From: a virus
Virus record (IMG/VR): IMGVR_UViG_3300019758_000009
Span: 1 to 64,000 of that record
Strand: one strand, 5' to 3'
Length of the DNA: 64,000 nt
In this document: positions 3,792-63,510 of the stretch, one piece after another
Numbering within the stretch: the stretch's first letter is position 1
Layout: each line of letters begins with the position of its first letter
Translations under genes and position numbers: made by a program
Notes under the pieces: generated by a model
Told to the model about the DNA's origin: nothing
Databases searched by the model: none
The model's input: the letters and a program-made list of their open reading frames with translations, nothing else

Positions 3792-4352
3792 CTAATCAAA
3801 ACCATCACCCCCGTCACCACCAGCGCAATAAATGTTGGTATCGTATATTGTTCTGTAGTTACTATCACCTCCAAGCCTAACTGATAATCTTCCGCTTCCA
3901 AATAGATTTAATCTACCCGTTTTTAATTTTTCAAGTCTTTTTATGGCTCTAAGGTAAGTTTCTTCATCCTTAGTTAGCTCAAATTCCTCTCCGTTATTAT
4001 TGGTTACTATTTGCCCTATATCGCATCAGAGGTCGGATTGTTTAGCTTTGCGCCTACACTTAGGGCAATCATGCTCTACTATATTATTACTCATCATCCC
4101 AGTTCCGTGACATAAATAGCAAGCTCCCGCCCCTTCGTTACTGGCCACAGCATCATTAATACTTGGCTCTTTTCCGGTAAGAGTCTCTATTTTGAATGAT
4201 CCGCTGCTAGTGATGGCATCGTGAATATTTTCTTCTATAAGGTCTCTTATTTCCTCTTTGGTTTCCGCATTAAGCTTTCTGCCTTTAAGTAGATCGCTAA
4301 AGCCCCACGTTTTGTCTTCTAGGTGGGCTGTAATTGTCATCTTTAAATCCAT
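3792..4352 (-). pseudogene. hypothetical gene with internal TGA (4028-4026); frame stays open 77 more codons to TAG 3794-3792
   Basis: Manual translation past the stop: SDL*CDIGQIVTNNNGEEFELTKDEETYLRAIKRLEKL...IYCAGGDGGDGFD*; upstream part has a CxxC...CxxC zinc finger. Confidence 0.5.
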
Positions 4353-4378
4353 ACGCTATATTTTATATATTCTTATTA

Positions 4379-5086
4379 TTAAATTTCCTTCAGCTCTTCA
4401 ATAATTTCCTCCCTTGTTAATTGGGTGTACTGGAATTCATAACTTTTGTCGCCATATACATTCATCAAGCGCCTCACCATGTCTTTTTGACCTCCAGTAA
4501 GCCTTTTTCTGTATAGATAGTGAAATCTCTTGCTAGACACCTTCATCCAGCCTCTATTCTCAAGAACGACCTCAGCATCCTTGTATTTTTCCGATTCAGT
4601 CTTGGTGAGGGTTTTAGATAGAAACAACTCCTCCGCATTATACCGGTGTGTTTCGAAGCCACACTCATAGAAATTGCCTTCAGGATCAACCCATCCGTGC
4701 TGATGGTCCTTGGTTAATCTGGTTGGCATTACTGGATTGATTTTAACTAATGGTTTAGTTAGGGTGTCGCAGTTAAATACTAGCTTCTTGTCTTTGTAGA
4801 ATGAGTAATTATATCTACCCCTTACGTCAGGGATGTCGTTTTCGCGACCAATAACTACTGTGTTGACTGTCAAATCTCTGGCATCAACCAGAAATGACAG
4901 TTGCGCATTGTAACGGGAATAGAAATACTTTATAGCCTCTACAGCAGTATCTCCAGATAGTCTTATGTATCTACCGGCATAGCGACCTACCCAATACCTC
5001 TTGTATTTTTCATATCCGTCATCCTTTCTGGCAGATATTATTTCTCTTTGTAGCTCTTGGTATAGCTTTTTAGCTTTTTGGCTCAT
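4379..5086 (-). CDS. hypothetical protein (GWVDPEGNFY...H motif)
   Basis: 235-aa ORF. Confidence 0.7.
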   Translation of the reverse strand: MSQKAKKLYQELQREIISARKDDGYEKYKRYWVGRYAGRYIRLSGDTAVEAIKYFYSRYNAQLSFLVDARDLTVNTVVIGRENDIPDVRGRYNYSFYKDKKLVFNCDTLTKPLVKINPVMPTRLTKDHQHGWVDPEGNFYECGFETHRYNAEELFLSKTLTKTESEKYKDAEVVLENRGWMKVSSKRFHYLYRKRLTGGQKDMVRRLMNVYGDKSYEFQYTQLTREEIIEELKEI

Positions 5087-5156
5087 ACGATTGGTGTTTT
5101 ATTATTAATTTTCCCGCAAGATAGTAAACATTTTTGAAAACGCAAACTATTTTAAC

Positions 5157-5188
5157 AAAAAAGCCACCTAGATTTCTCTAGATGGCTT
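5157..5188 (-). terminator. intrinsic terminator
   Basis: AAGCCA-CTAGA / TCTAG-TGGCTT stem with U-run on the minus strand. Confidence 0.65.
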
Positions 5189-5191
5189 GAT

Positions 5192-5644: not shown

Positions 5645-5653
5645 GTTATATAT

Positions 5654-7062: not shown

Positions 7063-7527
7063 TTATCCGCAAAATGGGTAGCCGTCGTCATCAAATCCTA
7101 CATTTGATACTGGCTCTACGTTATACCCTAGTTTCTCTATTTTTTCGATATCCTTATCATGTTTTGTTGGGTCTCCTAATGTCTGTTTTGAGTAAAGCTT
7201 CTTAGCTCTTAGAATAGGAGCTACTTTTGAGCATTTGATGCCATTTATGATATCAAATTCCTCTGTATCATTAGATAGTACATCTACTTTGCACCCATCA
7301 AAATCGAATTTAGCGCCCATACCGTCTGATGCTGTGCTGGTGATGTGTATACTATACAGGTCTGACGGCATCTTTATATTGGGGGCGTAATCATTAATTA
7401 ATATATCGATATCTCCAGGCTCCCGCCCCAGGTCAATGCCGTGCAGCTTTAAAGCTATTGTTCCAGTAACTAAAGAGTTTGGGTTGAGTTTCTGTATAGC
7501 TTTGATAATTTCCAATTGTTTTTCCAT
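7063..7527 (-). CDS. minimal nucleotidyltransferase (Pol-beta superfamily)
   Basis: VTGTIALKLHG...PGDIDIL (G[S/T]...DxD) and KVDVL third acid. Confidence 0.75.
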   Translation of the reverse strand: MEKQLEIIKAIQKLNPNSLVTGTIALKLHGIDLGREPGDIDILINDYAPNIKMPSDLYSIHITSTASDGMGAKFDFDGCKVDVLSNDTEEFDIINGIKCSKVAPILRAKKLYSKQTLGDPTKHDKDIEKIEKLGYNVEPVSNVGFDDDGYPFCG

Positions 7528-7538: not shown

Positions 7539-8396
7539 TTAGTTGTTGTAAGTTATTTTTTCCGTCAACAAGATAGCCATTGCTGAATCCCGTAGAGTAT
7601 CGTTTCCATCAGTCATGTATTCTAAAGATGTTATCTTCTCTTCTATGTATAGACTAGCGAATTTCGGGTCATATTTTGATATACCCTTGACATTATGTAT
7701 TATGTCTGCATACTTTATGGTCTGTGAGTCACCACTTACAGTGCCTAATCTGTGGTTTTCTGCTGTTTTTCTGATGGCTCTGTTCAGTCCTGGGCAGCTT
7801 TTACCCGTAAAAACGTTCGTAAGCTCACTGACTGAGGTCTTGATGGCGAAAACTTCATAGCTAGCATACCCCATGAGATGTAAATCATCAGCTAATTCAT
7901 CAAGCGTCATATCTGTATCCTCTACGAGGTCATGAAGCAATGCGGCTGGAATGTTATAAGGGGTTACACAGCTCACTATTTTAGCCACAGCATAAGGGTG
8001 TGTCCAGTATTTATGTTTGCTGTACTTTCTCATTTGCTCGCCGTGTTTGCTCTTTACGTAATCCAAGAGTACTTTATCGGTGGCACAAAACTCAGATGGT
8101 GGCACTCCTGCGTTAACTAAGTTGGCGATAGCAATATCTTCCTGTTGCGATATCTGTTTTGTTACGATTTTATCTATATCTTCGCTTGGTAAATCCATAA
8201 ATCTATCTACATGCAGAACTCTTGGTACAGAATGCTTGTAGTTCATAGCGTTAAAAATTATCTCGGAGCAGTGACCGTCTAAGATTTCGTTATGTATTTC
8301 GGATATTTTTACCATCAGGTGCGAAGAACGCTCTCCAGAGCTTCCCTGGGTTGTGTGGGTCGATTTTTTAATACTAGATATATCCTGCACTACCAC
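7539..8396 (-). CDS. HD-domain hydrolase, RelA/SpoT-hydrolase (small alarmone hydrolase)-like
   Basis: HGEQMRKY..YWTHPYAVA, AALLHDLVEDT, IKYADIIHN motifs; extra ~110-aa N-terminus. Confidence 0.8.
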   Translation of the reverse strand: MVVQDISSIKKSTHTTQGSSGERSSHLMVKISEIHNEILDGHCSEIIFNAMNYKHSVPRVLHVDRFMDLPSEDIDKIVTKQISQQEDIAIANLVNAGVPPSEFCATDKVLLDYVKSKHGEQMRKYSKHKYWTHPYAVAKIVSCVTPYNIPAALLHDLVEDTDMTLDELADDLHLMGYASYEVFAIKTSVSELTNVFTGKSCPGLNRAIRKTAENHRLGTVSGDSQTIKYADIIHNVKGISKYDPKFASLYIEEKITSLEYMTDGNDTLRDSAMAILLTEKITYNN

Positions 8397-8719
8397 GCTT
8401 TGATCCTCCTTTTAGTTATTTTTATATACATCATACCATGAATAATGAAGGTTTCTCCGTCAACCGTCACCGTGTCTACCCCAGACGTAACCTTGTACGC
8501 TTTAAAGATAGTGTTCATCTTAATGTGCAGCAATACCGACCATCTAAACAACAGGCTGGTGTTGGTGGAGAAGGTCGTTATAGTTCTTAACAGCTCTCTC
8601 TTTTTGAGATTTGATAATGACTGCCAGTCAAACCTTGACCTGCCGCACTTATCTTCTGTGTGGTACCCAGGAAACAAGTCTTCTGAGAAGGTAAAGTAAA
8701 TTTCTTTTTTCTTTTTCAT
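8390..8719 (-). CDS. hypothetical protein
   Basis: 109 aa, AGCGT-ATG start, overlaps neighbours. Confidence 0.65.
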   Translation of the reverse strand: MKKKKEIYFTFSEDLFPGYHTEDKCGRSRFDWQSLSNLKKRELLRTITTFSTNTSLLFRWSVLLHIKMNTIFKAYKVTSGVDTVTVDGETFIIHGMMYIKITKRRIKAW

Positions 8720-9267
8720 ACGCTATAATTTAACTGGTCATTATTGATTGCTTCATCCCTGTACTTTTTGTCGTACTCCTCAGCAAGTTTATCGCGATTA
8801 GGTTGTGATGGCTCCATCTCTATGGTTGTTAGGTGGTTTAACAATATTGAATTGTCAAATGCATAACTTAATGCATCGCCACCGTTCATATTATTGACGT
8901 AGTAACGTTGGTGGAATTTTTCAATAATCTTCTTGGCTTCGGATATCTCAATCTCTATTACTTTACCGTGATACTTAAACGCTATTGCTTGATATGGTGA
9001 CAGCTGAGATACTGAATGCTGGTTGTATGCTGTGGTTAACTTAACAAATAGGTAAGATATTTCAGGGAAGTACACGCGGTCCTTCCATATCTGTATGCGT
9101 TTATTCCAGTCATCCATATCTACCTCGTACCGCTTATCAACCCATTCGAGCTTCATAATGTCGTTACGCTTCTTTATGGCGTTGGCCCTGCCTTCATCTG
9201 ACATACCGGCTATTGCTATGAGGAAATCTATCTTCCCTTCGATCCTATCTAATTGTGGATTTACCAT
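8716..9267 (-). CDS. hypothetical protein
   Basis: 183-aa ORF in the operon. Confidence 0.7.
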   Translation of the reverse strand: MVNPQLDRIEGKIDFLIAIAGMSDEGRANAIKKRNDIMKLEWVDKRYEVDMDDWNKRIQIWKDRVYFPEISYLFVKLTTAYNQHSVSQLSPYQAIAFKYHGKVIEIEISEAKKIIEKFHQRYYVNNMNGGDALSYAFDNSILLNHLTTIEMEPSQPNRDKLAEEYDKKYRDEAINNDQLNYSV

Positions 9268-9647
9268 GGGTTACTTTTTAGTTGTTCGTAAAATTCGGGA
9301 TCATCCTCCTTCAGCTTTCGCATCTCTTCGGCGAGCTTCTGGGATTGCTTGAGTAAATCATCTGGAAGGGTAATCGGATCTGTTTGGCTTGACCTCCAGT
9401 GTACCCACTTAGCCCTCCACCAATTCCACAATCTCCAGTACCAAACACGATCACGGTGCGCTTCAATAAGTTCATCCTTAATGTAATCTATAGCTACCGA
9501 ACAATGTTGCCCTTCACACACGTAAAGCTGTGTACAGCTACTGCCACCGATGATCAGTTCTTCGCAAAGCTCACACATGCGTTCTTGCTGTTCATCGGTG
9601 ATGTCGCCGTTATCGAGTGCTTTTAAAGATCGCCGTAGTCTTGCCAT
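9261..9647 (-). CDS. hypothetical Cys-containing protein
   Basis: 128-aa ORF in the operon. Confidence 0.65.
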   Translation of the reverse strand: MARLRRSLKALDNGDITDEQQERMCELCEELIIGGSSCTQLYVCEGQHCSVAIDYIKDELIEAHRDRVWYWRLWNWWRAKWVHWRSSQTDPITLPDDLLKQSQKLAEEMRKLKEDDPEFYEQLKSNPW

Positions 9648-9987
9648 AGCTAAAATTAATAGACATAGTATTGTTAATATTCGCTAAATGCGCTGCAAAA
9701 TTGCCAGATAAATCGCCTAGCATGCCGCTGATGCGGCCAGCAATGAATTCTGACGTTCGAGCGATACAGGGGCTCTTGCTTGACACTTCTAAATATGCTC
9801 GGTTAACAGTAGCTGTCAGGCTCCTTTTGGCGTCTGGGAAGAGTACTAATCCTCGCGGTAATTGACGCAATTCAGCGCCTAGTACTCTGTCTACAATTAA
9901 GTTAAGCATTGCTGCTCCTGCTTTGCTTTCATCCGCAGCGTCAATGATCGCTTGATCTACTACTGCTAAAATTTGTTCTTTTTTCAT
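9610..9987 (-). CDS. hypothetical protein
   Basis: 125 aa, AGCGT-ATG start. Confidence 0.65.
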   Translation of the reverse strand: MKKEQILAVVDQAIIDAADESKAGAAMLNLIVDRVLGAELRQLPRGLVLFPDAKRSLTATVNRAYLEVSSKSPCIARTSEFIAGRISGMLGDLSGNFAAHLANINNTMSINFSYGKTTAIFKSTR

Positions 9988-10103
9988 ACGCTAACAATAA
10001 TAATTTGGTGGTTTATTTTGATCGTCATCACCTTCTCTTGTGGATATCCAGATATAGGGAGCTTAGCTCTCTATAATCAGAACTCCAATTGAATATGGCA
10101 ATA

Positions 10104-10460
10104 TCATCGTACACGGCTCCTTACTGCATCGATCAATACTGGAAAGTTACAGTTTTGTTCTGCGCCCTTCATTACGATGAAATGCTTAATCTCCATCCCC
10201 ATCACGTGCTCGGGCCTGTAGACTATACGGGCGTTGCTGTGTAGAAATAATTCAAAAGCTCTTTCTACTTCACGGGTCCCGCGCATATCTCCGGCAACTA
10301 TCACAAGATCAACTACTTCCGCTTCTGACGCTTTTCGTCGATATTGTATTTGGCTCAGGATCTGATCCTGGTTGCCGCTGATGATGGCTAACTGAGAAAG
10401 GGTTTTAGTCCTCCAGTCTCTTACCCATTTGGGTACTAATGTGAATTTATTAAATTTCAT
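10104..10460 (-). CDS. hypothetical protein
   Basis: 118 aa, own TACATTTG promoter element at 10490-10483. Confidence 0.7.
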   Translation of the reverse strand: MKFNKFTLVPKWVRDWRTKTLSQLAIISGNQDQILSQIQYRRKASEAEVVDLVIVAGDMRGTREVERAFELFLHSNARIVYRPEHVMGMEIKHFIVMKGAEQNCNFPVLIDAVRSRVR

Positions 10461-10531
10461 AGGCTATCCTTTAAGTTCTCTGCAAATGTAAATAAAAAAC
10501 CCGAATAAACAAGAGTCTACTCGGATTTATT

Positions 10532-10897
10532 TTATTTTTTCTTCAATATTGTCAATTTCGCGAACATGACGCCTCCACCTTCTGGGCCATATGGATCTTC
10601 CTGGGTGGTAAATTCGATATGTTTATCTTTATAGATCCCCTCACTAAGCTTCGCGGCCAGATGACGTTTAGCGTCTTCTATGTACATTTCGCGATTATGC
10701 TCGGGCACTACCGGTATCCTGGTATCAGCTACATATCTCGCTTCATCCATGACTGTTTCATCTATATGTACTTCGCGATGGATAGATGGAGATATCGCTT
10801 TATCAAACTTATTGTTCACGCGAGCCAGTCTATCTGTTAGCTCCTTTGATTTGGGGTCTACCGATATTAGATCCATCAATTTTTCTATTAGTTTCAT
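10532..10897 (-). CDS. hypothetical protein
   Basis: 121-aa ORF downstream of rtcB. Confidence 0.7.
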   Translation of the reverse strand: MKLIEKLMDLISVDPKSKELTDRLARVNNKFDKAISPSIHREVHIDETVMDEARYVADTRIPVVPEHNREMYIEDAKRHLAAKLSEGIYKDKHIEFTTQEDPYGPEGGGVMFAKLTILKKK

Positions 10898-10947
10898 ACA
10901 CTATAATTTTGCTCAAGACAAAATGCCCTTCTTATTTCTTATTTAAG

Positions 10948-12126
10948 CTACCCTTTAATCACAGCCAATGGCTGTAACTCTACCGTCGGCATAACCAGAT
11001 CGGTTTGGTTAGCCATAACTACATCGATAGATTTATATGCGCCAGGCGCTTCATCCAGCGCTTTTGTAGATGTCATGCCGTGGACAATTCCTTGGCTGTC
11101 TAGCATTTCTTTCTGGGCGGCAAAATCCAGGTTTTTCTTAGCTTGTGTTCGGCTCATCAGCCTCCCAGCTCCATGCGAACAGGAGTTGAACGACTCAGGG
11201 TTGCCCTTTCCAAATCCAAAATACGACTTAGTACCTTGTGAGCCCGGGATGATCACTGGAGTTCCGCTCTCTGCCTTTACAGCGCCTTTACGGTGAACTA
11301 ATACGTACTCACCAAAATGTTCTTCTACAGCGACATAGTTGTGCGTTACATCGTGCGAGGCTGTTACTTCTACTTCTGGGAAGTACGCCTTAAGAGAATC
11401 CATTACAAGATCACCCATTGTCTTGCGATTCAGTTTTGCGTACACTTTACACGTTATCATATCGCTAACATAGTTCTTAGCCTCCGTCGTATTCGTTGGC
11501 AGGAATGCTAACTTTAATTCAGAGTCAACTGCAGAATGCCAGTTTTTATTTAGTTTTACAGCGATCTTATCATGAGCCTGAGCGACTGTATGGCCAAGAT
11601 TCCTTGACCCAGAATGGATCATTATCCATATAAACCCATCGCTACCTTCCTGAATCTCTAAGAAGTGGTTTCCACCCCCGAGGGTCCCTAATTGCATCTC
11701 TGCATTTTCAATATGGTTCGACATAATTTCAGAGTTGGCCATCTCAAGCATTAATTTTTCGGGAATTTCAACAACTGGTGATTTACGCTTTGAGAATCCT
11801 GTCGGGATTTTATGCTTGGTATCATTTACCAAAGCCTTCAATGTCTGTAGGTCTATGCTAGTTAAATTAGTTCTAATTCCCAGCATACCGCAACCAATAT
11901 CTACTCCGACAGCATTAGGTATCACAACATCTCTAGTAGCTAAAACACCTCCAATAGGCACCCCCATTCCACCATGGACATCTGGCATGAGCGCTACGTG
12001 TTTGTATACAAATGGCAGCTTAGATAAATTGGTGGCCTGCTCAAGGGCTAGTTTATCAATATCTGACGATACGTTCTCAACCCATGCTTTAATCGGGACA
12101 GCTCCCGTTTCTTTCCAAATTTTCAT
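10948..12126 (-). CDS. rtcB: RtcB RNA 2',3'-cyclic phosphate/5'-OH ligase
   Basis: MPDVHGGMG.PIG, VGVDIGCGM, GTLGGGNHFLE, HSGSRNLG, HNY, VHRKGA, HGAGR, DEAPGAYK motifs. Confidence 0.97.
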   Translation of the reverse strand: MKIWKETGAVPIKAWVENVSSDIDKLALEQATNLSKLPFVYKHVALMPDVHGGMGVPIGGVLATRDVVIPNAVGVDIGCGMLGIRTNLTSIDLQTLKALVNDTKHKIPTGFSKRKSPVVEIPEKLMLEMANSEIMSNHIENAEMQLGTLGGGNHFLEIQEGSDGFIWIMIHSGSRNLGHTVAQAHDKIAVKLNKNWHSAVDSELKLAFLPTNTTEAKNYVSDMITCKVYAKLNRKTMGDLVMDSLKAYFPEVEVTASHDVTHNYVAVEEHFGEYVLVHRKGAVKAESGTPVIIPGSQGTKSYFGFGKGNPESFNSCSHGAGRLMSRTQAKKNLDFAAQKEMLDSQGIVHGMTSTKALDEAPGAYKSIDVVMANQTDLVMPTVELQPLAVIKG

Positions 12127-12148
12127 ACGCTATAATTTTTGTTCAGAG

Positions 12149-12240: not shown

Positions 12241-12432
12241 CTATGCTTTTAGTTGAGCTAGTGTATCCATCTTCTTTTTCTCTTCTGAGTGGGTGGTTTG
12301 ACTGCTTTTAAGGGTTAAGAAGTGATCGTACCACCCATCTAAGTGCCAAAGTATAGGCGTAACCCCCATCTCTTTACATAGTTCACTATATGTACTATGG
12401 TCCTCTATTGATTTCTTTAGTCCGTATGACAT
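12241..12432 (-). CDS. hypothetical protein
   Basis: 63 aa, AGCGC-ATG start. Confidence 0.55.
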   Translation of the reverse strand: MSYGLKKSIEDHSTYSELCKEMGVTPILWHLDGWYDHFLTLKSSQTTHSEEKKKMDTLAQLKA

Positions 12433-12452
12433 GCGCTTTGTTTTAGTTTTCG

Positions 12453-12773: not shown

Positions 12774-13203
12774 TAATATTTAAACTTATCCAGTCTTTAT
12801 CATGTATGACTTCTGAGTGGAATGGTAATACATTTAGATGTTTTGCTGACCATATATTTACATCGACAACAGTAAGGGGTCGATTAAATACGGCATCATC
12901 ATACAGATCTTTATTCCTGGACATTTCTGACCTGATCTCCGTGGCCAAAAACACCATCATCTCTTCATGGGTTTTGGCTCTCTTTTTCGCTTTTTTTACT
13001 CTTTTTTCGAGTAAGAATTTGTTGATTTTTGAAAAAATAACACTCATAGGGGTATGTTTTTTGGTTAAATAGTACTTAAATCTCCTGTAGCTGTGCAGCC
13101 ACACCATATGGTCACGTTCCACTGTAATCCTGAACCACCATTTACTTCTACTGTAAAAGTCCTGGTTTTCGATAAACCCTTCTGCTGGCGCCCAACCTAT
13201 CAT
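12733..13203 (-). CDS. hypothetical protein
   Basis: 156 aa, start coupled to the upstream stop. Confidence 0.6.
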   Translation of the reverse strand: MIGWAPAEGFIENQDFYSRSKWWFRITVERDHMVWLHSYRRFKYYLTKKHTPMSVIFSKINKFLLEKRVKKAKKRAKTHEEMMVFLATEIRSEMSRNKDLYDDAVFNRPLTVVDVNIWSAKHLNVLPFHSEVIHDKDWISLNINGYKMVEMSSRNK

Positions 13204-13886
13204 TACCCCGGTAACTTTACAGGGTTGATGGTTCTCATAGTCAAATCAAGGATATCCTTGCTTTGTTTGACTGATTGGTTGTATATAGCTTCTATAACCT
13301 GGTGTGGCGTTGAATGGCCTGACATAAGTGCCGAATAGATATATCTGGCTAATGGGTTCTTATTCACGTCACCCATAAACTTTCCAGAAAACCCAGACAT
13401 AACGCTGTACTTATCATTTGAGTGATGAAAAGCCTCTTTGCTTGGATTACAGTCCTCGTCTAAGTGTGGTATGTTTTCGTTTAGCTTATATGCGCCTCCT
13501 ATTTGGGTTTTTACTAAATTATAAATATCCTCAAAATCACCAGGGACCCCGCCGAGGTTTCTGTCATCAATGTAAATATCAGCGGATATTTTTCTTACAT
13601 CACCATAATAATTTATTCTAGACGGATCATTCTCGTTGTATAGGGTGTAGGGGATATTAAAATAGTCCAGGTACCCTCTAGCCGCTGATTCCCAATCGGG
13701 ATTTACACGTGAAGACATACTGGAATCCCTTAAGGTATTTACTATTACTATGTACCCTTCATCGATCCATCTCTTCATTACTTGGGGTACATTTTTACGT
13801 GGTGGAGGGATGTCGTGTATTGACGATTTATCCTTAGATGTAATACAGCCGTCAAAGTCAACTGAAATTGTTTTTTGGAATATCAT
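13203..13886 (-). CDS. HAD-superfamily phosphatase with C-terminal extension
   Basis: ISVDFDGCI (DxD) and KISADIYIDDRNLGG motifs. Confidence 0.85.
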   Translation of the reverse strand: MIFQKTISVDFDGCITSKDKSSIHDIPPPRKNVPQVMKRWIDEGYIVIVNTLRDSSMSSRVNPDWESAARGYLDYFNIPYTLYNENDPSRINYYGDVRKISADIYIDDRNLGGVPGDFEDIYNLVKTQIGGAYKLNENIPHLDEDCNPSKEAFHHSNDKYSVMSGFSGKFMGDVNKNPLARYIYSALMSGHSTPHQVIEAIYNQSVKQSKDILDLTMRTINPVKLPG

Positions 13887-13896
13887 ACGCTAAAAT

Positions 13897-14623: not shown

Positions 14624-16567
14624 TTACAAATCTTTAAACTGCTCTATTGTCAATACATGGCAATTAGGGTCCTCTTTAGCCTTCACAACTTTACTGTTTG
14701 TGGAATTTGGGTTAGCTACTATGAGGTGGGTAATCTTCTTACTGTAAGATTTTTTAACCTCACCGCCCTCTTCTGTGATAGCTTTCTCAAGATCCTTATC
14801 CCTTACGCCACTGAAGCATGCTGTAACACCTAAATACTTACTGCCTTTAGGTTCCTGGGCCGGTGTTTTGATGTATTTGGGGTCTATGTGTGTACTAGCA
14901 TACCAGCTCGGGAAGTATTTGATACCTGCTTCAAATATAGCGATAGTCTTATCTGCCAGCCCTTTAACCTTGTTAAGGTTCGCAATATGCGAGTGGTCGA
15001 GTCCAGCGTAGTTGTCATACGTCATTATCTCTGTGATATAATCTGCAGGCAAATTATCCAGTATTAGCTGGAGTTTTGTTGAGCCGATGCCCGTGAACTC
15101 TCCAGACGCATGCATAATTTTCGCTAACGATTTTGAGCCGCTACGTAATGTTCGTACCTGATCGATTAGCTGCGATGCCGTGGCGTCTCCAAGGCCGTCT
15201 ACGGCTACCACTTCGTCGTGGGTTAAATTCAGTATCCTCGCAACTATCTGATAACCAGCGTTGAACAATTTCTCGATCGCGCTTTCTGCAAATTCTTCAA
15301 ATCCAAGGATTTCGAAGAATGAAACGATCTTCGCTAACTGCGCCCCTTTGCATCTTTCGTTTGAACACATAAGCTCTACGTAACTGCTGTTCCACTCGGT
15401 GCTGCTACCGCATGCTGGGCAAGTGTCAAATTCAGCTAGCATTTCACCCATAGCTTCTTCGTCGTAGCTTACTGTCTCTATAATTTTCGGGATTACCTCT
15501 CCAGATCTTTTTACCACAACCTTTGATCCCTTAGCTATGTTATTATCCACAATCCACTTCATGTTATAGCCAGTTGGGTTAGATACTTCTGCCCCTGATA
15601 AAATAACTCTTTCTAGAGCTACTGTAGGCTTTAAGAATCTCTGCTTGGATACCTTACAGTTTACAGAATTAACAGTTGTTTCGATACGCTCTTCAAAATC
15701 ACCTTTGTACGCCATAGCGTAATTAGGGTTACCTGTCCGTTCATCTCTTCCTAGCCTCTGCCTATCTTCTGCTGTTACAACGTTAATGACTAAACCATCG
15801 ATCTCGTAATCCTTATTCCATGAACTGTAAAGGCTATTCATTAGTTCGTCAGTTAAGTACTGAGCTCTAATGTAATACTGAGGGACATCAATAGCGTTGA
15901 TTTTGTTTAGTTCATCCATCATAGTTCTGAAATCCCCCATTTCTAACTCATCAGAGTAATACCTGAAGTAGTCCACATGTTTCAATAATAAACTTGGGGT
16001 ATCATTATTAAGCAGGCCAAGAACAGTGCCTCTAAGGGTTTTATATTCTTTGCCATCGCGAGGATTGGTCTGGCCCTTCCAGTAAGTATCCCAGTTTGCC
16101 CTGGAAATGATAAATTCTCCACCTGTAAATCTTAACGGGCCATTGTTTGGAGCGTTAATGATTTTTAAATGGTTATCGCTTCTTTGTCCTTCGTTCTCGT
16201 CACCTCCCCTTGTAAAGGCGGCTCCAGTGATTGAGTCATCCAATAATGATCCCCCGTCAAATTTAGGTCCTATCGCGATATAATCTGTTTCTGACAGGTT
16301 ATTCTTCCTTAGCCACTCGCTTACCTCTTTGAGGGTCTTTAGCTTTTTAAGGCTACGCATTGGTATTGGTAGCTTTTGTTTTCGTTCTCCTCGAAATGTA
16401 AATGGCTCAATATTTACGACGAAGGGGTGATTAGGGTGTTTTTCTGCGAATGCAACCTTATGTGCATCATACACTTCATCCGATATATCAGCTTCTCCGG
16501 TTCTGTACGACTTATTCCACGCCTTAAGCTTGTCAAGTAACTCTTTGTCTTTTAATGTTAATTCCAT
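14624..16567 (-). CDS. ligA: NAD-dependent DNA ligase
   Basis: PKFDG (KxDG), TRGG, EIDGLV, AMAYK, RSGEVIPKI, CPACG zinc finger, HhH repeats, C-terminal BRCT. Confidence 0.95.
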   Translation of the reverse strand: MELTLKDKELLDKLKAWNKSYRTGEADISDEVYDAHKVAFAEKHPNHPFVVNIEPFTFRGERKQKLPIPMRSLKKLKTLKEVSEWLRKNNLSETDYIAIGPKFDGGSLLDDSITGAAFTRGGDENEGQRSDNHLKIINAPNNGPLRFTGGEFIISRANWDTYWKGQTNPRDGKEYKTLRGTVLGLLNNDTPSLLLKHVDYFRYYSDELEMGDFRTMMDELNKINAIDVPQYYIRAQYLTDELMNSLYSSWNKDYEIDGLVINVVTAEDRQRLGRDERTGNPNYAMAYKGDFEERIETTVNSVNCKVSKQRFLKPTVALERVILSGAEVSNPTGYNMKWIVDNNIAKGSKVVVKRSGEVIPKIIETVSYDEEAMGEMLAEFDTCPACGSSTEWNSSYVELMCSNERCKGAQLAKIVSFFEILGFEEFAESAIEKLFNAGYQIVARILNLTHDEVVAVDGLGDATASQLIDQVRTLRSGSKSLAKIMHASGEFTGIGSTKLQLILDNLPADYITEIMTYDNYAGLDHSHIANLNKVKGLADKTIAIFEAGIKYFPSWYASTHIDPKYIKTPAQEPKGSKYLGVTACFSGVRDKDLEKAITEEGGEVKKSYSKKITHLIVANPNSTNSKVVKAKEDPNCHVLTIEQFKDL

Positions 16568-16632
16568 ATGCTATACTTTAAATGGGTATTGGTAATTCAG
16601 TGCGAAAATAATACTAATAATTGATAAAACCA

Positions 16633-16672
16633 AAAAATGAGGACAACTTTTTACGGCTGCCCTCATTTTTTT
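16633..16672 (-). terminator. intrinsic terminator
   Basis: AAAAAATGAGG / CCTCATTTTTT stem. Confidence 0.7.
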
Positions 16673-17531: not shown

Positions 17532-17651
17532 ACGCTGTAATTTTTTAATTTAGGTCAAATGTAATACTAATAATTAACAAAAGCAAAAAAGAGAAGCAAC
17601 TTTTTACGGTTACTTCTCTTTTTATAAGTTATATTATTGCCTTTGTATATT

Positions 17652-20103: not shown

Positions 20104-20137
20104 ACGCTATAATTTTAAATTCGATGCAAAGGTAACA

Positions 20138-21467: not shown

Positions 21468-21583
21468 AAGCTTTTATTTTAATTGTACATAATATAATTT
21501 ATTCTCCCGCACGATATCGTGCGGGAGCTAATGGACAGTGTGTTACGTTATTTATTTAAATTGCCCGTAAACATAACTGTTCA

Positions 21584-55099: not shown

Positions 55100-55143
55100 G
55101 TCGAAGAAAACAGAATAACAATTTAATAATTAAAATCAAGCGT

Positions 55144-56541
55144 ATGAGTACAGACACTAATTATTTGGATCAATTTGGAGGTGCTATTGAAACTTATGAA
55201 GAAGCATCAGAGAGAATGGCCGCAGAAGCAGCTTCGAAAGGTGGTTCAAAACTTAAAATGTTTAAAATACCTGAAGGCGAAAGCAAGCTGCGTTTAATCG
55301 TGCTCCACCCAGAGTCTCCGGTAAAAGGGTTTACTTATCCAGCGGCTCAATTTTTCATGCCTATTAATGTCCCTGGGCAAACAAAGCCTCGATACGTCAA
55401 GGTGTTAAGAGCTACAGACAATGGATTCGACAAAGACTTGATTCTTGAATTCAAGAAGTTAGCCAACGCAGCAGTAGAAGCTCAGATCGCAACAGCTAAG
55501 GGTGCGCGTAAAAAAGAGCTTGAAGCATTGAAGGATAATCTAAATAAAGGATCATACAATAACGACGATTCTTTACTGTATGACTTCAAGCAAGTGGCTT
55601 ACGCTCTTGATCTTGAGAGCTCAAAAACAAGAAAAGAAGGCTGGCAGGTTGTTGAGTTCTCCAACAAGCAAGCGACAGACCTTAAGCTTGTTATTAAAAA
55701 GCTATGGGACAAACGAGCTAAGAAAGAATTAGCTTGGGCTGATGATAATGACAAGGACCCACGACAAGCTAACATGGTATGCCCAGCAACTCACCCTGGA
55801 GGTGCTTTTGTTACGGAGATAGACAAAGGAAAGGTAAACAACAAAACCGAATACAGATTCAGCATTGACAACGATGTAGATAACATCATTGAGTTAACAG
55901 AGGCTGAAATCAAATCTTTCTTTGACGGTGAGCCTTTGCATAAAGCTTATAAAGGATATAATCGCTATCACTACGGGGCCACTATTGCCTTCTTGGATCA
56001 ATTCGATGCTCGCCTTAACTTGGGTGTATTTTCATCAGATGAATTCCAGGATATCGTTAAGGCATTCGAAGCACAGCTCGACCCTGCAGACACTCAAGAA
56101 TTTTCGCTTGAATCAAAGTCTAGCGATGACAGCTCAACAGAAGGAGAAGAAGCTGTAGATGGCTTGCTTCTTGATGATTTACTTGATGAATTCGATGAAT
56201 TGAGTGAATTCGATGAAGACTCAGAGGAGATTGAGGACTTCCGTAAAAAGCTACGCCTGTACATCGCTCAAGAAGGTCTTAAGGTTAAGATTGGTAGAAG
56301 AAAGTCTACAGAAGATGCAGTGCAAGAGATTGAGGAAGCTATCGACGAGAAAGGTGGAGAGAGAGGCGTTACTGACCGAGACGGTGGAGAGTCAACAGAA
56401 GCTGACACCAGCGGCGGCGCTCCAGAGCCAGAAGCTGAAACAGAAGCTGAAACAGAAGAAGAGGACAAACCAAGGGCTTCAAGATCCAGAAGAACAGGTA
56501 GTTCCAGAGCCGGCAGAACGAGTCGCGCTTCTAGATCGTAA
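55144..56541 (+). CDS. putative ssDNA-binding protein (gp32-like) with long acidic tail
   Basis: MFKIPEGESKLRL N-terminus, acidic C-terminal half; start moved to the AGCGT-ATG at 55144. Confidence 0.55.
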   Translation: MSTDTNYLDQFGGAIETYEEASERMAAEAASKGGSKLKMFKIPEGESKLRLIVLHPESPVKGFTYPAAQFFMPINVPGQTKPRYVKVLRATDNGFDKDLILEFKKLANAAVEAQIATAKGARKKELEALKDNLNKGSYNNDDSLLYDFKQVAYALDLESSKTRKEGWQVVEFSNKQATDLKLVIKKLWDKRAKKELAWADDNDKDPRQANMVCPATHPGGAFVTEIDKGKVNNKTEYRFSIDNDVDNIIELTEAEIKSFFDGEPLHKAYKGYNRYHYGATIAFLDQFDARLNLGVFSSDEFQDIVKAFEAQLDPADTQEFSLESKSSDDSSTEGEEAVDGLLLDDLLDEFDELSEFDEDSEEIEDFRKKLRLYIAQEGLKVKIGRRKSTEDAVQEIEEAIDEKGGERGVTDRDGGESTEADTSGGAPEPEAETEAETEEEDKPRASRSRRTGSSRAGRTSRASRS

Positions 56542-57811: not shown

Positions 57812-57822
57812 AACTATAGCGT

Positions 57823-60147
57823 ATGTATAGACCAGTGTCAATGGAATGCGATTACTTATTTTCATTCCAGAATTTAAAATATACATTCAATAATGGAGTA
57901 GCGGAGCTGGTGAATGGAGAAAACAGAGACAATAGCTCTCAAAAGTCCAACGGTTCAGGGAAATCTTCATTACTGGAGGTAATATCAATAGGCTTGACTG
58001 GCGCTCCTCTTCGGAAAGTAAAGCTGGAAGAGATCATCAACGACGATGCAGATGAAGGTGGTATGGTATTTGTGTTCGCTAACGATGTACTAAAAGAGCA
58101 GCTTGTCATCACCAGGAGATTTTTTAGAAAATCTGCTTCTACCGTATCAATGCAAATTTTCAGAGATAACGTAGCTGTAAAAGACCCATTACTGGAACAG
58201 TTATCTTCTGTAGACGAGTACAACAAAGCTATACTGGATCGAGTGGGTTTATCTAAGGTTGAAGTTTACAATAACTTCATATTATCTAGAACTAGGTTTA
58301 AAAACTTCCTAGATATGTCTGACAAGCTCAAGAAAGAAGCTATCAATAGATTTTCCAGAGGTAGCGCTGTTGACCAGGCTATAGCTGAATTATTGAAAGA
58401 TAAAAAATCCCCGCAGGCACAATTCGAAGTCGCGGAAAAGGTACTCGCTAAGCGTGTAGGACAACTTGAAATTATGGAAGCCCAGTTAGTTAAAGCCAAT
58501 GAAGAAAGTCGGGACAGAGCTTTAGCTATTGACGCTCAAATAGATGATGTAAAAACAAAAATAAAAAGCTCAAGAAAGTCTATTAGAGAGAACCTAAGCA
58601 CCATCAGTTCACTTGATGAGAGAGCTAATGAATTGGATTCGATTCTGGATGATATTGATGCCGTCATGGAAATAGAAGCCACGCCAGAAGATCACCTGAA
58701 CAAGCTTATTAAGCTTATTGAAGAGAAAAGCGTTGAATACACTCACTCTTTCAAAAAAGGTTTCGAAGACATAGCGGGAAGTGCAGATATTTACAACACC
58801 AGTATCGCAAAACATACCACCTCCATTGCCGAGTTAACAAAAAACTTGAACGATGCCACCAAATCTTTAAAAGATATCGAGTCAGACCCGGAAGCAAATG
58901 AGGATGAGCATATTAAAAAAACAGAAGGTATCGATAGTAAGGTTGAAAAGTTAAAGCTAACGGTCAAGAAGTTAAAATCTGATTTAAAAACAGCCAATGA
59001 AGATAGAGATACATTAGATCGTCAAATATCTACATTGTCCACAAAATTGGCAGGAACTATCGAGTGCCCTAAGTGTGGCCATAAATTTTTAGCTGCAGAA
59101 GAAGGTTTTGATGTACCTACAGCCAAGCTCGATATTGAAGCTTTGCGCAAAAAGTCCTCTAAATTTGATGAGTTGTCGATTAACGTTAACGAACAAATCA
59201 AGAAGTCAGAGAAAAACATCGGTTTAGCCGAGGATGAATTAGACGAGATAGAAGATAAGTTTGATAGCATTATTAAAAAAGCAGACGGTCTCGTTCTTGA
59301 AATGAAGAAGATAGATCTAGCTATTAAAGCTGAGAATGCAGCTATAACGGATAATTCACTTAAAATAAAGCAGATAGATTCGAAGATAGATGCCTATATC
59401 GACTCATGCTTCGCCTCTTATTCAGATACTGTCACCTCTATGCTGGATGGTATAGAAGATAATATATCTGAATTAGAGCATGGCAACAAAAGAATAGAAG
59501 GTACCATCGAAGCTTTAAATTTAAGGCTTGAAGATATCGAAAAGAACAAAAACCTGGATAACACGACCTCTATATCTGAAGAGATCACCAAATTAAAGGC
59601 AGCTAAACGAAAAGCTGAAAAGGATCTAGTGAAGCGGAAGATAGAGCTTGACAAGTACACTGCCCAGGAAAAAGTATTTATCGATTTTAAGACTGAACTG
59701 GCTAACTCTAAGATAGAAGCTCTTGGCGATATTACCAATGATTTCCTTGAAAGTATCGGAAGCGATTTACGTATCGAGCTTTCCGGATATTCAAAAACAG
59801 CCAAGGGGGATATTAAAGAAAAGATATCTGTAAAACTTCTTCGAGATGGCATTGACGCCGGTTCATTCGGAAAGTTTTCGGCAGGAGAACAGGCTAGGAT
59901 CAATCTAGCTACTATTTTAGCTATGTCAAAACTGATAAATATCAACTGTGATGAAGGCAAAGGCCTTGATCTGTTGGTATTGGATGAAATTCTTGATTCA
60001 GTCGATGAGAGTGGGTTAGCTAATATGCTGTCCACATTAAATTATCTTAAGACTACATCACTTGTTGTTTCGCATGGCTTAATAGCCGAAGGGTATGAGC
60101 ATAGACGTGTCGTGATTAAAGAAAATGGTTATTCAACTATAAATTAA
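57823..60147 (+). CDS. sbcC: SbcC/Rad50-like SMC ATPase
   Basis: SNGSGKS Walker A, coiled coils, CPKC zinc hook, FSAGE signature, LVLDE Walker B, VSH. Confidence 0.93.
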   Translation: MYRPVSMECDYLFSFQNLKYTFNNGVAELVNGENRDNSSQKSNGSGKSSLLEVISIGLTGAPLRKVKLEEIINDDADEGGMVFVFANDVLKEQLVITRRFFRKSASTVSMQIFRDNVAVKDPLLEQLSSVDEYNKAILDRVGLSKVEVYNNFILSRTRFKNFLDMSDKLKKEAINRFSRGSAVDQAIAELLKDKKSPQAQFEVAEKVLAKRVGQLEIMEAQLVKANEESRDRALAIDAQIDDVKTKIKSSRKSIRENLSTISSLDERANELDSILDDIDAVMEIEATPEDHLNKLIKLIEEKSVEYTHSFKKGFEDIAGSADIYNTSIAKHTTSIAELTKNLNDATKSLKDIESDPEANEDEHIKKTEGIDSKVEKLKLTVKKLKSDLKTANEDRDTLDRQISTLSTKLAGTIECPKCGHKFLAAEEGFDVPTAKLDIEALRKKSSKFDELSINVNEQIKKSEKNIGLAEDELDEIEDKFDSIIKKADGLVLEMKKIDLAIKAENAAITDNSLKIKQIDSKIDAYIDSCFASYSDTVTSMLDGIEDNISELEHGNKRIEGTIEALNLRLEDIEKNKNLDNTTSISEEITKLKAAKRKAEKDLVKRKIELDKYTAQEKVFIDFKTELANSKIEALGDITNDFLESIGSDLRIELSGYSKTAKGDIKEKISVKLLRDGIDAGSFGKFSAGEQARINLATILAMSKLININCDEGKGLDLLVLDEILDSVDESGLANMLSTLNYLKTTSLVVSHGLIAEGYEHRRVVIKENGYSTIN

Positions 60148-60151
60148 GCGT

Positions 60152-60643
60152 ATGGCAAAAAGAGTGAAAAAAATCCCAAAGGACCTCAAAAGAGAAGAGG
60201 TTCTTGGGCTGGATATCGCTGAACATTGCGGGTTCCATAGCATGTTAGATACCGGTACATGGGTATTAACTGAAAGTAAAAGTAGAAACGGGTTCAAGAA
60301 ACATAAGCACTTCAGGGACACATTAGTTAATTTCATAAAAGAAAATAACATAAGAATGATCGCTGCCGAGGATGTTAATGTCAAAACTCACTTCAGAGCA
60401 GTGGTAAGCTTATCAGAGCTAAGAGGCGTACTTCTTGAGGTATGTGATGAGATGGATCTCCCAGAACCTGAATTTATGAACGTAAGCTCCTTAAAGTTAT
60501 TCGCCACCGGAAACGGTCGAGCATCTAAGGAAGAGATGGTCCAGACATGCACTACGCGGTATAACTTCACCCCCGTAGATGACAACAATGCCGACGCATT
60601 TCATGTATTTAATTTCTTTTGTAGAAAATTTAATATCAAGTAA
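60152..60643 (+). CDS. ruvC: RuvC-like Holliday junction resolvase
   Basis: VLGLD, IAAED, LKLFATGNGRASKEEM, DDNNADA. Confidence 0.9.
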   Translation: MAKRVKKIPKDLKREEVLGLDIAEHCGFHSMLDTGTWVLTESKSRNGFKKHKHFRDTLVNFIKENNIRMIAAEDVNVKTHFRAVVSLSELRGVLLEVCDEMDLPEPEFMNVSSLKLFATGNGRASKEEMVQTCTTRYNFTPVDDNNADAFHVFNFFCRKFNIK

Positions 60644-60645
60644 GT

Positions 60646-60987
60646 ATGCCAGAAATAGAAGAACAAAAAGCAATAGAGACCACGAAACAGAGCCGTCAAA
60701 AGCTTTCAAGAAAAGACCGCAGAAAAACAGACGCTGTACAGGATAAATTCTTATCCATACTGGGAAGTTTTTATGGTACCATATCAAAAAAGGGGAAACA
60801 GCTTACAGATGACGAGTTAAGGTCTGAGTTTTCAAAGCATAACACAGCCTGGGTAAAGGTTTGCGTTAACAATAAGTTAGATAAAAAAGCGAAAGCATTA
60901 TTTGCATTGGAAATTCAACAGACATGGGAAAAGAAAAAAGCGAAGTCAGAAGCTGCTCAGAAGGAAACTGCAGAAGCACCTCAATAA
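60646..60987 (+). CDS. hypothetical protein
   Basis: 113-aa ORF in the operon. Confidence 0.65.
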   Translation: MPEIEEQKAIETTKQSRQKLSRKDRRKTDAVQDKFLSILGSFYGTISKKGKQLTDDELRSEFSKHNTAWVKVCVNNKLDKKAKALFALEIQQTWEKKKAKSEAAQKETAEAPQ

Positions 60988-61541
60988 CAGAAAAAGAAAG
61001 AAACGATTTATTCCTAAAGTACGTAATGCCTAATGAAGGGCTAATAAAGAAGATATGTCTAGAACTAACTAATAACCCAAGCAATGTTGACGATCACTTT
61101 CAAGAGTGCTTGGTTAATCTTTTTAGATATATCCACACTTATGATCCCGATAGAAAGCTGTTAACCTGGATATACATATGCACAAAGCGTCACGTTATCG
61201 AGCTCGAAAAGAAAGTAGCTCGGTACAAAGAGGACTTAATAGAACCCGCAAAGGTTCACAATAAGTTCACAATAATTGACGATGTCAGTAATGAGTTAAC
61301 TATGGAGAATTACACCAACGAGTTATCTGACGAGTGCATAGTGGCCCTTGACAGCATGCAGCCCATTTACAAGAATACATTCTTGATGAAATTGATGGGG
61401 TACAAACTGAAGGAAATAATGGATCATGAATACAAAAACGGCAATCTGAAGCACAGGAATATAGAAACTGTAAAAAGCAGATTATTCCTGGCCAGGAAAC
61501 ACCTTCAGAGGCATTTATCTGAATTCTATGACAAAGGATGA
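60924..61541 (+). CDS. ECF-like sigma70 factor (candidate late sigma)
   Basis: Region 2 DDHFQE..VNLFRYI.TYD..LLTWIY and region 4 GYKLKEI...ETVKSRLFLARK. Confidence 0.88.
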   Translation: MGKEKSEVRSCSEGNCRSTSITEKERNDLFLKYVMPNEGLIKKICLELTNNPSNVDDHFQECLVNLFRYIHTYDPDRKLLTWIYICTKRHVIELEKKVARYKEDLIEPAKVHNKFTIIDDVSNELTMENYTNELSDECIVALDSMQPIYKNTFLMKLMGYKLKEIMDHEYKNGNLKHRNIETVKSRLFLARKHLQRHLSEFYDKG

Positions 61542-62121
61542 GATTAAAAAGAAAACAGAGGAGGTTTTTACTTTCCTATACCGGAAGGGGGTTTCCCCTT
61601 CCTTTAGGTTCCCCAAGGGTTACGGTGCAAGCATAATAGATTCATTCGCTGATACTATACTTGAGAGAGAAAGAGGTATGGTTGGAGTTGGCATTATCGT
61701 CGATTACTGCATCCACCAGACCCACTTATGGAGGGATGCTGAAAGGTGGGATAGGTTTAATATTACATGGGCTTTTGGGCCGAAGGGTATTGATAGGTTT
61801 TACAACTCAAAAACAGGCACTAGATACTATCAGAACAGATGGTTAGATTACAACGATTGGGATCGAGACACTCTAAAATCTATGTTTACAGACATAAAGG
61901 ATCACCCATTAAAGAAGTTTGTATACATAGAGGCTGAGGATACGACTAAGGCTAGGTTTGTAAGCACAGAAGCTGGGTTAGGCCTATGCATTATACTGAC
62001 AACACTGTACACCCCCCACTCTCCGGTATGTGGAAAATGTAAAAACAAAGATCAGTGCGAAGCGATTTTAAAAAAGAGAGACCCTGAACTGCTTAGGGTA
62101 CGTAACACTACAGAAATATAG
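61528..62121 (+). CDS. hypothetical protein with C-terminal Cys cluster
   Basis: C...CGKC...C; lies between sigma and helicase. Confidence 0.65.
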   Translation: MTKDEIKKKTEEVFTFLYRKGVSPSFRFPKGYGASIIDSFADTILERERGMVGVGIIVDYCIHQTHLWRDAERWDRFNITWAFGPKGIDRFYNSKTGTRYYQNRWLDYNDWDRDTLKSMFTDIKDHPLKKFVYIEAEDTTKARFVSTEAGLGLCIILTTLYTPHSPVCGKCKNKDQCEAILKKRDPELLRVRNTTEI

Positions 62122-62124
62122 CGT

Positions 62125-63510
62125 ATGGCAAGAAAAGAAGAATATAGCCCCTTAACGGCGGCGTTTTTATATGAATTATTCAATATGGCATTTAAAAACA
62201 CATTAGTCGCCGGGATTGTGGCTACACACGTTAAAGAGCCATACTTACCATCAAAAGAATTTCAAGATATCCATAAAGCTATCGTGTCACACTTCAAAGC
62301 ATACAAAGAAAACCCTTCTTATGGCAAGATGATGCAGAAGTTTAAAGATGACGAGGATATTGTTGATTTAGTAGCTGAAATTAGAGACACCGATTACGAA
62401 GGGACTGTAGACAGCTTGATAGATGATCTTGAAAAGTATGTAATAGACGTCTCATCTTCCCAGCTTTATGAAAAGTTCGGTTCCCTGTATGACAAAGGAG
62501 CTAAAGATTTAGCTCAGCAAGAAATGATCGAGCATGCAGAGTTCCTTAAATCATTCACACTTAAAGCTGAGTCATTTACTGAGGTTCTTTCAACATTCGA
62601 AGAAAGGCATACTGAGAACAAAATAAAAGCCCAAGCAGAAAGGGTCGCCGGAATAAGGCCTGTTACTCGATTTTATATTGATGACCTGGATGTCCTTAAT
62701 AATGGGAAGAACCTAAGAACGCAAGTAGCCTGTATACTCGCTAGCTCAGGAGTAGGTAAGTCACACGCTGCTAGGCACATAGGTAAAGCAGCTGCTGTTG
62801 ATGGTCTTGATGTCCTACATCTACAGCTCGAAGGATCAAAAGACGAAGTTCTTGACGCGTACTCAGGCTCCTTGATCGAGGAAAATGCCAGCAGCTTTGA
62901 AAAGGCCCACATCACCAGCGGCCAAATGAAAGCCATCAAAGAACAACTTAAGGGGTATTCTGGAACAATCAGGGTCCGAGCTTTCCCAAGGTTTAACAAC
63001 CAGGTCAGCACAGTAGATGTTAGCAATGCTATTTCTGAGTACAGAAAATCAACTGGGAAGGTTCCAGATATACTTATTATTGACTCCATGGACCTATTGA
63101 CAGATGCATCTGGTAAGAACTGGAATGCTAGTGATGAACGCCATAAGCGCGTAGCAGTAGTTAACGACTTAAAAGATATCGCTGGCGATGAGAATTGCTT
63201 TATTGTAACAACCACACAGGCCAATATCAATGACAGGGAGTGGTTGAATGACCCTAAAAACGTTTTAACAGAATTTAACGCCGCCGAAGCTAAGGGTATT
63301 GTAAGACCTTTAACGTGGCTTATTTCATTAAATCAAACAGCGGATGAGAGCAGTGGAGATAGCATGAGACTTCATGTAGCTAAGTCAAGATTTACAAAAA
63401 AAGGAGGTACATTCAAGATAGCTACAGATTTTGATCGAGAAATATTCTATGACAAAGTCAGAACGATAGACATTCAGCGCAGAAACGAACTAGCTGATCG
63501 AGAAAGGTAA
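62125..63510 (+). CDS. dnaB: DnaB-like (SF4) replicative helicase
   Basis: ASSGVGKS Walker A, LQLE, ILIIDSMDL, TTTQAN, VAKSR. Confidence 0.88.
   Translation: MARKEEYSPLTAAFLYELFNMAFKNTLVAGIVATHVKEPYLPSKEFQDIHKAIVSHFKAYKENPSYGKMMQKFKDDEDIVDLVAEIRDTDYEGTVDSLIDDLEKYVIDVSSSQLYEKFGSLYDKGAKDLAQQEMIEHAEFLKSFTLKAESFTEVLSTFEERHTENKIKAQAERVAGIRPVTRFYIDDLDVLNNGKNLRTQVACILASSGVGKSHAARHIGKAAAVDGLDVLHLQLEGSKDEVLDAYSGSLIEENASSFEKAHITSGQMKAIKEQLKGYSGTIRVRAFPRFNNQVSTVDVSNAISEYRKSTGKVPDILIIDSMDLLTDASGKNWNASDERHKRVAVVNDLKDIAGDENCFIVTTTQANINDREWLNDPKNVLTEFNAAEAKGIVRPLTWLISLNQTADESSGDSMRLHVAKSRFTKKGGTFKIATDFDREIFYDKVRTIDIQRRNELADRER

Follow-up and report, generated by a model that had tools for sequence, protein, structure and literature searches.

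A start-codon tag on non-structural genes of a microbial mat phage and a candidate late small RNA complementary to it

Introduction

We studied a short sequence that recurs at gene starts of a phage from a microbial mat metagenome (IMG/VR record IMGVR_UViG_3300019758_000009, 79,799 bp, CheckV completeness 72%), together with a candidate small RNA that carries its exact complement. The window is the first 64 kb of this record, analysed at its full length. Non-structural genes often begin with AGCGTATG, in which AGCGT directly abuts ATG, and the complement of this tag lies in a predicted hairpin loop within a ~67-nt intergenic unit. From its sequence features we consider it somewhat probable that this RNA is made late and pairs by its loop across the start codons of the tagged early and middle mRNAs, blocking initiation.

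Results

A tag is fused to the start codons of non-structural genes

Genes run leftward from ~22.4 kb down to 0.7 kb and rightward from 22.8 kb, the rightward set consisting of a structural block to ~55 kb followed by replication and recombination genes. Bacteroidota are the likely hosts, because host-type TTTG/TAnnTTTG promoters were found in the phage and its head protease has distant relatives in Bacteroidales genomes and in Bacteroides phage BS-TP1. A megablast search with 12 kb against deposited phages gave zero matches.

We counted 13 copies of AGCGTATG in the window versus 1.27 expected, and 13 or more copies were reached in 0 of 100 shuffles. The 79.8-kb genome holds 15 copies, 13 of which abut gene starts, including two outside the window at 72218 and 77318. 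When all 2926 ATGs of the genome were considered, AGCGT was found directly 5' of 13 of the 90 curated gene starts versus 2 of 2836 other ATGs, and one-mismatch versions preceded 15 of 90 and 35 of 2836, respectively; gene starts carry the tag about 200 times as often as other ATGs do. The first-pass annotation of this DNA had named 11 exact sites and judged the motif to be far above chance. All 11 are present and abut plausible starts, and the counts bear out that judgement. The one-mismatch sites that it listed were likewise all recovered, those of the portal (AGCATATG) and tape measure (AGCGCATG) genes among them, and the protease, capsid, and sheath starts are indeed free of the tag.

The exact tag is present at 13 of 64 non-structural starts and none of 26 structural starts (Fisher p = 0.017), and every exact start tag belongs to either the leftward arm or the replication module. 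When one mismatch is tolerated as well, the numbers are 26 of 64 versus 2 of 26 (p = 0.002), the portal and tape measure genes being the only structural genes concerned. The consensus consists of an A-rich stretch, TATAGCGTATG (TATAGCGT-ATG), and then G or A; the full 11-mer is present at six starts. We define the tag as UAUAGCGU at positions -8 to -1, fused to ATG, and there is an A at -11 in 13 of 13 tags. Tagged genes encode RtcB, SbcC-like, RuvC-like, DnaB-like, guanylate-kinase-like, and DUF4494 proteins and several proteins of unknown function, and their promoter classes, from which we take the timing, suggest early or middle expression. Most genes that come right after a host-type promoter are tagged exactly or with one mismatch, often 19-25 nt past the -7 box, and genes internal to operons are tagged too; hence, the tag is part of the mRNA and independent of the promoter.

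The tag differs from the two initiation signals with which it was compared. It contains no GGAG, and a GGAGG-like purine-rich core 5-10 nt before the AUG, as in a Shine-Dalgarno (SD) sequence, was not found in it. Work on Flavobacterium johnsoniae reportedly points to an A-rich context near the start codon, in which A at -3 and -6 is notable. With C and U, respectively, at these positions, the tag differs from this Kozak-like Bacteroidota context, in agreement with the first reading of the DNA. Bacteroidota ribosomes keep the anti-SD sequestered (PMC7797042). We also made the comparison with host genes that the first-pass annotation had proposed. In 301 Bacteroidota genomes, the 11-mer TATAGCGTATG is present 0-5 times per genome, the same as a reversed control, and is not enriched. 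A looser tag pattern showed an excess only as expected of A-rich start contexts, plus insertion sequence (IS) copies; nine copies of AAAACAGCGTATG in one Bacteroides genome proved to be copies of an IS transposase.

An intergenic unit carries the complement of the tag

The anti-tag lies in a 160-nt gap ahead of the head protease gene. At the sequence level, the unit has a promoter, a hairpin, and a terminator, would give an RNA of ~67 nt, and is intergenic. The loop core CCAUACGCUAUA is a 12-nt exact complement of the tag and explains the off-gene copy of AGCGTATG at 26105-26112 on the minus strand. Folding favors the plus strand (z ~ -5) over the minus strand (z ~ -1.5 to -2), and the G-U pairs of the small RNA are compatible with the plus strand only. 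When duplexes were predicted between the loop and sense transcripts, 16 of 33 sites at ≤ -14 kcal/mol covered a start codon, compared with 0 or 1 for eight shuffled loops. Six targets have an exact match of 11-12 nt to the loop. Searches against Rfam gave no family match in the window, and the region 26000-26260 had only sub-threshold, terminator-like matches. Minus-strand mini-open reading frames (ORFs) after the inverted tag (11, 9, and 4 codons) are unconserved and were rejected as genes.

Two tag-like sequences lie near the unit. The first, UAGCCUAUGG at 26067-26076, lies in the small-RNA promoter between its -35 and -10 boxes, has no conserved counterpart in the related loci L002 and L008, and could, according to the predicted fold, pair with the anti-tag in read-through transcripts. 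The other, AGCGTAT at 26185-26191 (plus strand), falls in the spacer of the protease promoter. It complements the RNA loop and is likewise unconserved in relatives.

The promoter of the unit belongs to a putative late class. We found AACCA-N17-CTATT six times without mismatch, versus ~0.3 expected by our estimate from base composition; every copy is on the plus strand and precedes late genes. The copies stand before the portal gene, the small-RNA unit, gene 31054, the tape measure gene, and two right-end genes. A phage sigma factor probably reads these promoters. The coordinates of the unit, the late promoters, and the tag sites are given in Table 1.

Table 1. Positions in the window of the candidate small-RNA unit, late-class promoters, and start-codon tags
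Feature	Position	Strand	Remarks
Small-RNA promoter, late-class	26061..26092	+	AACCA (26061-65), 17-nt spacer, CTATTATAAA (26083-92)
Stem-loop 1	26096..26126	+	7-bp stem (26096-102 with 26120-126, one G-U pair), 17-nt loop
Anti-tag CCATACGCTATA in loop	26104..26115	+	Exact complement of tag -8 to +4; invariant in three lineages
Intrinsic terminator of small RNA	26127..26162	+	15-bp stem with two U-G pairs, then U tract
Late-class promoter AACCA-N17-CTATT	22737..22763	+	Upstream of portal gene
Related promoter AACTA-N16-CTATTATTA	26171..26196	+	Upstream of head protease gene
Late-class promoter	30989..31015	+	Upstream of gene 31054
Late-class promoter	31688..31714	+	Upstream of tape measure gene
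Phage sigma factor (Sigma70_r2)	60924..61541	+	Candidate reader of late promoters; own start untagged
Exact tag AGCGTATG (full TATAGCGTATGG)	4350..4357	-	Start of gene 4026..4352, 108 aa, function unknown
Exact tag	8717..8724	-	Start of gene 8390..8719; its ATGA overlaps the preceding gene's stop
Exact tag	9985..9992	-	Start of gene 9610..9987
Exact tag	12124..12131	-	rtcB start (10948..12126); host-type TTTG/TAnnTTTG promoter end 23 nt upstream
Exact tag	13884..13891	-	Start of gene 13203..13886, PHROG phosphoheptose isomerase-like
Exact tag	17529..17536	-	Start of gene 16671..17531; 25 nt downstream of host-type promoter
Exact tag	20101..20108	-	DUF4494 gene start (19552..20103); host-type promoter 24 nt upstream; tag retained in L008 orthologue
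Exact tag	55139..55146	+	Start of gene 55144..56541; two host-type promoters upstream
Exact tag	57818..57825	+	SbcC-like gene start, 57823..60147
Exact tag	60147..60154	+	RuvC-like gene start, 60152..60643
Exact tag	62120..62127	+	DnaB-like helicase start, 62125..63510; TAG in tag is the upstream gene's stop
One-mismatch tag ATCGTATG	5084..5091	-	Gene 4379..5086
One-mismatch tag AACGTATG, then GAAAAA	7525..7532	-	Gene 7063..7527; predicted duplex -15.5 kcal/mol
One-mismatch tag AGCCTATG	10458..10465	-	Gene 10104..10460
One-mismatch tag AGTGTATG	10895..10902	-	Gene 10532..10897; G-U-compatible change
One-mismatch tag AGCGCATG	12430..12437	-	Gene 12241..12432
One-mismatch tag TATAGCATATGG	16565..16572	-	NAD-dependent DNA ligase gene 14624..16567
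One-mismatch tag AGCTTATG	21465..21472	-	Gene 20604..21467
One-mismatch tag AGCTTATG	22340..22347	-	Gene 21584..22342; host-type promoter upstream
One-mismatch tag AGCTTATG	63577..63584	+	Gene starting 63582; host-type promoter upstream
One-mismatch tag AGCATATG	22794..22801	+	Portal start
One-mismatch tag AGCGCATG	31751..31758	+	Tape measure start

The loop is conserved in diverged relatives

Two diverged lineages have the unit at the same position, one represented by L002/L011 and the other by L008 and near-identical copies, and their head proteases are ~50% identical to that of this phage. All three lineages have an identical -10 box and loop core, and their minimum-energy folds leave the loop unpaired. 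In contrast, stem 1 reads GGGUUU/AAAUCC, GGGC/GCCC, or AGAAGU/ACUUCU, each version still complementary, and the terminator stems also differ. RNAalifold applied to a MAFFT alignment placed the stems out of register and was not used as evidence.

In L008, a relative with visible early genes, the unit and the tag co-occur. All five copies of AGCGTATG in its left arm abut ORFs of at least 105 aa; 5 of 11 left-arm starts carry the exact AGCGT, and three more have it with one mismatch. Four of the five tagged genes have no homologue in this phage, the sole orthologue being the DUF4494 gene. Hence, the tag is maintained across gene turnover.

Pattern scans of IMG/VR for the anti-tag returned the two known lineages only, other matches being chance or coding, and a covariance model of the RNA, run over 1.25 Mb of loci that are related or bear tags, found no additional member. 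DNA contigs from four sequencing runs matched this phage in sparse fragments only, none of them spanning 26060-26170. Closer protease relatives (P0002, P0003, and P0005-P0010) have 43-60% identity, and the two closest contig matches (L226 and L228) were rejected as not syntenic. In about 60 loci of distant relatives (protease ≤41% identical, BS-TP1 among them), no 5-mer was present more than three times at starts, and the gap before the protease gene is mostly too short for the small-RNA unit. A crude search in these loci for other pairs of loops and start complements was swamped by low-complexity words.

An unrelated phage group carries the core of the tag

A scan for the 15-mer AAATTATAGCGTATG revealed an unrelated phage group, G302-G306, which has the form (T)AGCGTATG at gene starts and is characterized by a 4357-aa ORF and direct terminal repeats. 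It is represented by the loci L370-L373 (G303), L374-L377 (G302), L256, L262, L296, L301, L306, L327, L332, L333, and L354. In the complete genome G303 (74,118 bp), AGCGT precedes 6 of 101 starts, five of them outside the search criterion. The protein overlap with this phage is a dUTPase-level match only. Searches of the group for an exact anti-tag away from gene starts and for matches to the RNA model both came back empty. One intergenic 10-mer pairs with the tag via a single G-U pair (chance ~0.1 by our own estimate); the candidate in G303 is UCAUGCGCUA at 49921.

In two unrelated IMG/VR contigs (L003 at 8534 and L005 at 1160), the 16-mer CCATACGCTATACAAT stands directly after a transfer RNA (tRNA) 3' end and before ATG. 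This arrangement is probably due to chance.

Other features of the genome

The structural block ends with the gene for the anaerobic ribonucleotide reductase NrdD (52662-54440, E 7e-89). Two adjacent genes (L001:1386-3152 and L001:3160-5361) together encode the DNA polymerase III alpha subunit DnaE, one with the PHP domain and the first part of the NTPase domain, the other with the remainder and the finger and HHH domains. Outside the window, ARAGORN predicted a cluster of six tRNAs (Ser, Met, Pro, Glu, Ser, and Leu) and a permuted transfer-messenger RNA (L001:13968-15380, genome 77968-79380). The tRNA-Met of the cluster looks initiator-like, with three G-C pairs adjoining the anticodon loop and a 1:72 mismatch; its anticodon loop is the standard CUCAUAA. 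A tRNA T-arm-like sequence (GGTTCGATTCC plus flanks) at 54463-54490, 5' of gene 54522, was not called by ARAGORN; it may be what is left of a tRNA or of an attachment site.

An AAAAAAG slippery site closes gene 31054..31446, and an open -1 frame continues to 31613. The region 31443-31613 looks like a tail chaperone frameshift of the G/GT type. The copy of AGCGTATG at 31475..31482 (plus strand) lies within this extension, away from any gene start, and is a chance copy.

Discussion

The tag UAUAGCGU on the AUG would mark early and middle mRNAs, those of the leftward arm and the replication genes, made from host-type TAnnTTTG promoters. An RNA of ~67 nt would be transcribed from the late strand (~26095-26165) under the control of AACCA-N17-CTATT, the promoter class shared with the portal and tape measure genes, with the sigma factor as the probable reader. 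Its 17-nt hairpin loop would display CCAUACGCUAUA and pair with -8 to +4 of each tagged mRNA, covering the start codon. After the onset of late transcription, this would block 30S binding and probably accelerate decay, and one-mismatch tags would be weaker targets. Such a mechanism would account for the strict abutment of tag and ATG, because one fixed seed must span both, and for the invariance of the loop, because a seed that must fit many targets has little freedom to change. Expression of the RNA, its timing, pairing in vivo, and repression are what we infer here from the tag, its complement, the anatomy of the unit, and their conservation.

The first-pass annotation had suggested that the tagged starts are read by a small RNA at 26095 or by an RNA-binding regulator. 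Every computational test available to us favors the RNA: the loop is complementary to the tag and invariant while its stems covary, the unit has a promoter and a terminator, predicted duplexes focus on starts, and tag and unit occur together in L008 and are both missing from the ~60 distant relatives. Several points weigh against this interpretation. The transcript and its timing are predicted from the DNA of a metagenomic phage. Tag and loop are invariant in the three lineages, hence there is no compensatory change in the proposed intermolecular pairing; these lineages are also a small sample that may have been drawn from similar habitats. Among the 15 one-mismatch tags, a single one is compatible with wobble pairing. 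Moreover, G302-G306 has AGCGT at 6 of 101 starts, and since it lacks both an exact anti-tag and a homologue of the RNA, the core tag can apparently exist independently of this RNA; the group may have another reader, or an imperfect antisense RNA may have gone undetected there.

These last observations fit a different explanation, which we consider rather unlikely, namely that the tag is the operator of a protein or host factor (a RegA-like repressor, an initiation factor, or a ribosome-associated reader) and that the RNA is secondary, as a late competitor, or irrelevant. The enrichment of (T)AGCGTATG at starts in a group without this RNA and the lack of bias of one-mismatch tags toward G-U-compatible changes agree with such a reader, and T4 RegA is a precedent for one protein reading many early start regions (PMC3014915). 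However, a search of the 79.8-kb record (72% complete) for RegA (PF01818) gave nothing at E ≤ 1, and no homologue of Hfq or S21 was found in the phage. The two tag-bearing groups share no protein past the dUTPase-level match, the tag is not enriched in host genomes, and a conserved exact complement in a covarying hairpin would be left unexplained.

The complementary loop would have no explanation either if the tag were an endoribonuclease processing site, cut just before the AUG to give leaderless or monocistronic mRNAs from operons. We find this quite improbable, although the tag abuts the AUG exactly and occurs also at internal operon genes, the phage encodes the RNA ligase RtcB, and T4 RegB cleaves in early start regions (PMC3014915). 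No nuclease candidate was identified in the phage, and leaderless mRNAs are rare in Bacteroides (PMC7366714). Least probable of all is a DNA-level signal: the promoter or start site used by a phage RNA polymerase, the site of a transcription factor, or a linker for recombination where modules meet. The tags do lie at gene boundaries and are carried by non-orthologous genes, and TATAG presumably resembles the end of a T7-class promoter. But no T7-type RNA polymerase gene was found, the large ORFs being ligase, DnaE, NrdD, and tail proteins, and several tags follow a host-type promoter at a distance of 19-25 nt and are hence inside the transcript. Furthermore, a DNA site has no reason for a zero-spaced ATG in every copy, or for an inverted copy within a hairpin with strand-specific G-U pairs.

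Pairing of the late RNA with tagged start codons could be part of a phage-wide tag/anti-tag switch, in which a fixed tag of 8-12 nt on the AUG is all that an early or middle gene, even a newly acquired one without an orthologue, needs to come under shut-off by the late RNA; we see the chances of this as evenly balanced. The recurrence of the core tag in the unrelated group G302-G306 hints that tagging of start codons may be more widespread among Bacteroidota phages, and the reader may differ from one group to another.

Phages are known to turn off their early genes in the course of infection mainly by means of proteins such as T4 RegA and RegB, or by changes in transcription. A 2025 review of phage small RNAs contains no case in which one RNA acts on many genes of its own phage by way of a common tag at their start codons (PMC12197685), and a search of the literature found no published early-transcript motif of crAss-like phages. 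If our interpretation is true, one small RNA represses a dozen or more of the phage's own genes via an identical start tag, a new and very economical design in which fast-turnover accessory genes could join the programme by gaining ~8 nt. It would also add a case of RNA-based control in Bacteroidota, which are without Hfq and SD-led initiation. Being short and defined, the tag/anti-tag pair could find use in these bacteria as an orthogonal off-switch of translation.

The c4 RNA of P1/P7 and the CI RNA of P4 are phage antisense RNAs whose loops pair with short repeated targets and thereby block ribosome binding. The loop pairing resembles that proposed here, but c4 and CI are RNAs of temperate phages with two target sites, both within a single immunity operon, whereas here there would be 13 to 28 dispersed genes and a late lytic promoter. 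The late microRNAs of simian virus 40 (SV40) are perfectly complementary to the early T-antigen mRNAs and lower them. They share with our candidate the arrangement of a late small RNA complementary to early transcripts; they depend on the eukaryotic RNA-induced silencing complex and are cis-antisense to a single early transcript, unlike an RNA acting in trans on many genes. Among Bacteroides small RNAs, which can repress by start-codon pairing without Hfq, GibS of Bacteroides thetaiotaomicron has a conserved single-stranded seed that pairs across several start codons (PMC7366714). GibS is encoded by the host, has few targets, and pairs with each of them imperfectly and in a target-specific manner, whereas the phage has one fixed tag fused to the AUG and an RNA without an Rfam match. 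With T4 RegA, too, a single phage factor occupies the AUG region of many early mRNAs and stops their translation (PMC3014915), but RegA is a protein with loosely conserved AU-rich operators, in contrast to the near-identical operators and candidate RNA reader described here. Phage-encoded small regulatory RNAs also include lambda OOP, P22 sar, PreS, VpdS, and DicF. OOP and sar are cis-antisense to one gene, and PreS, VpdS, and DicF act on host mRNAs (PMC12197685), whereas the RNA described here would act on many of the phage's own genes.

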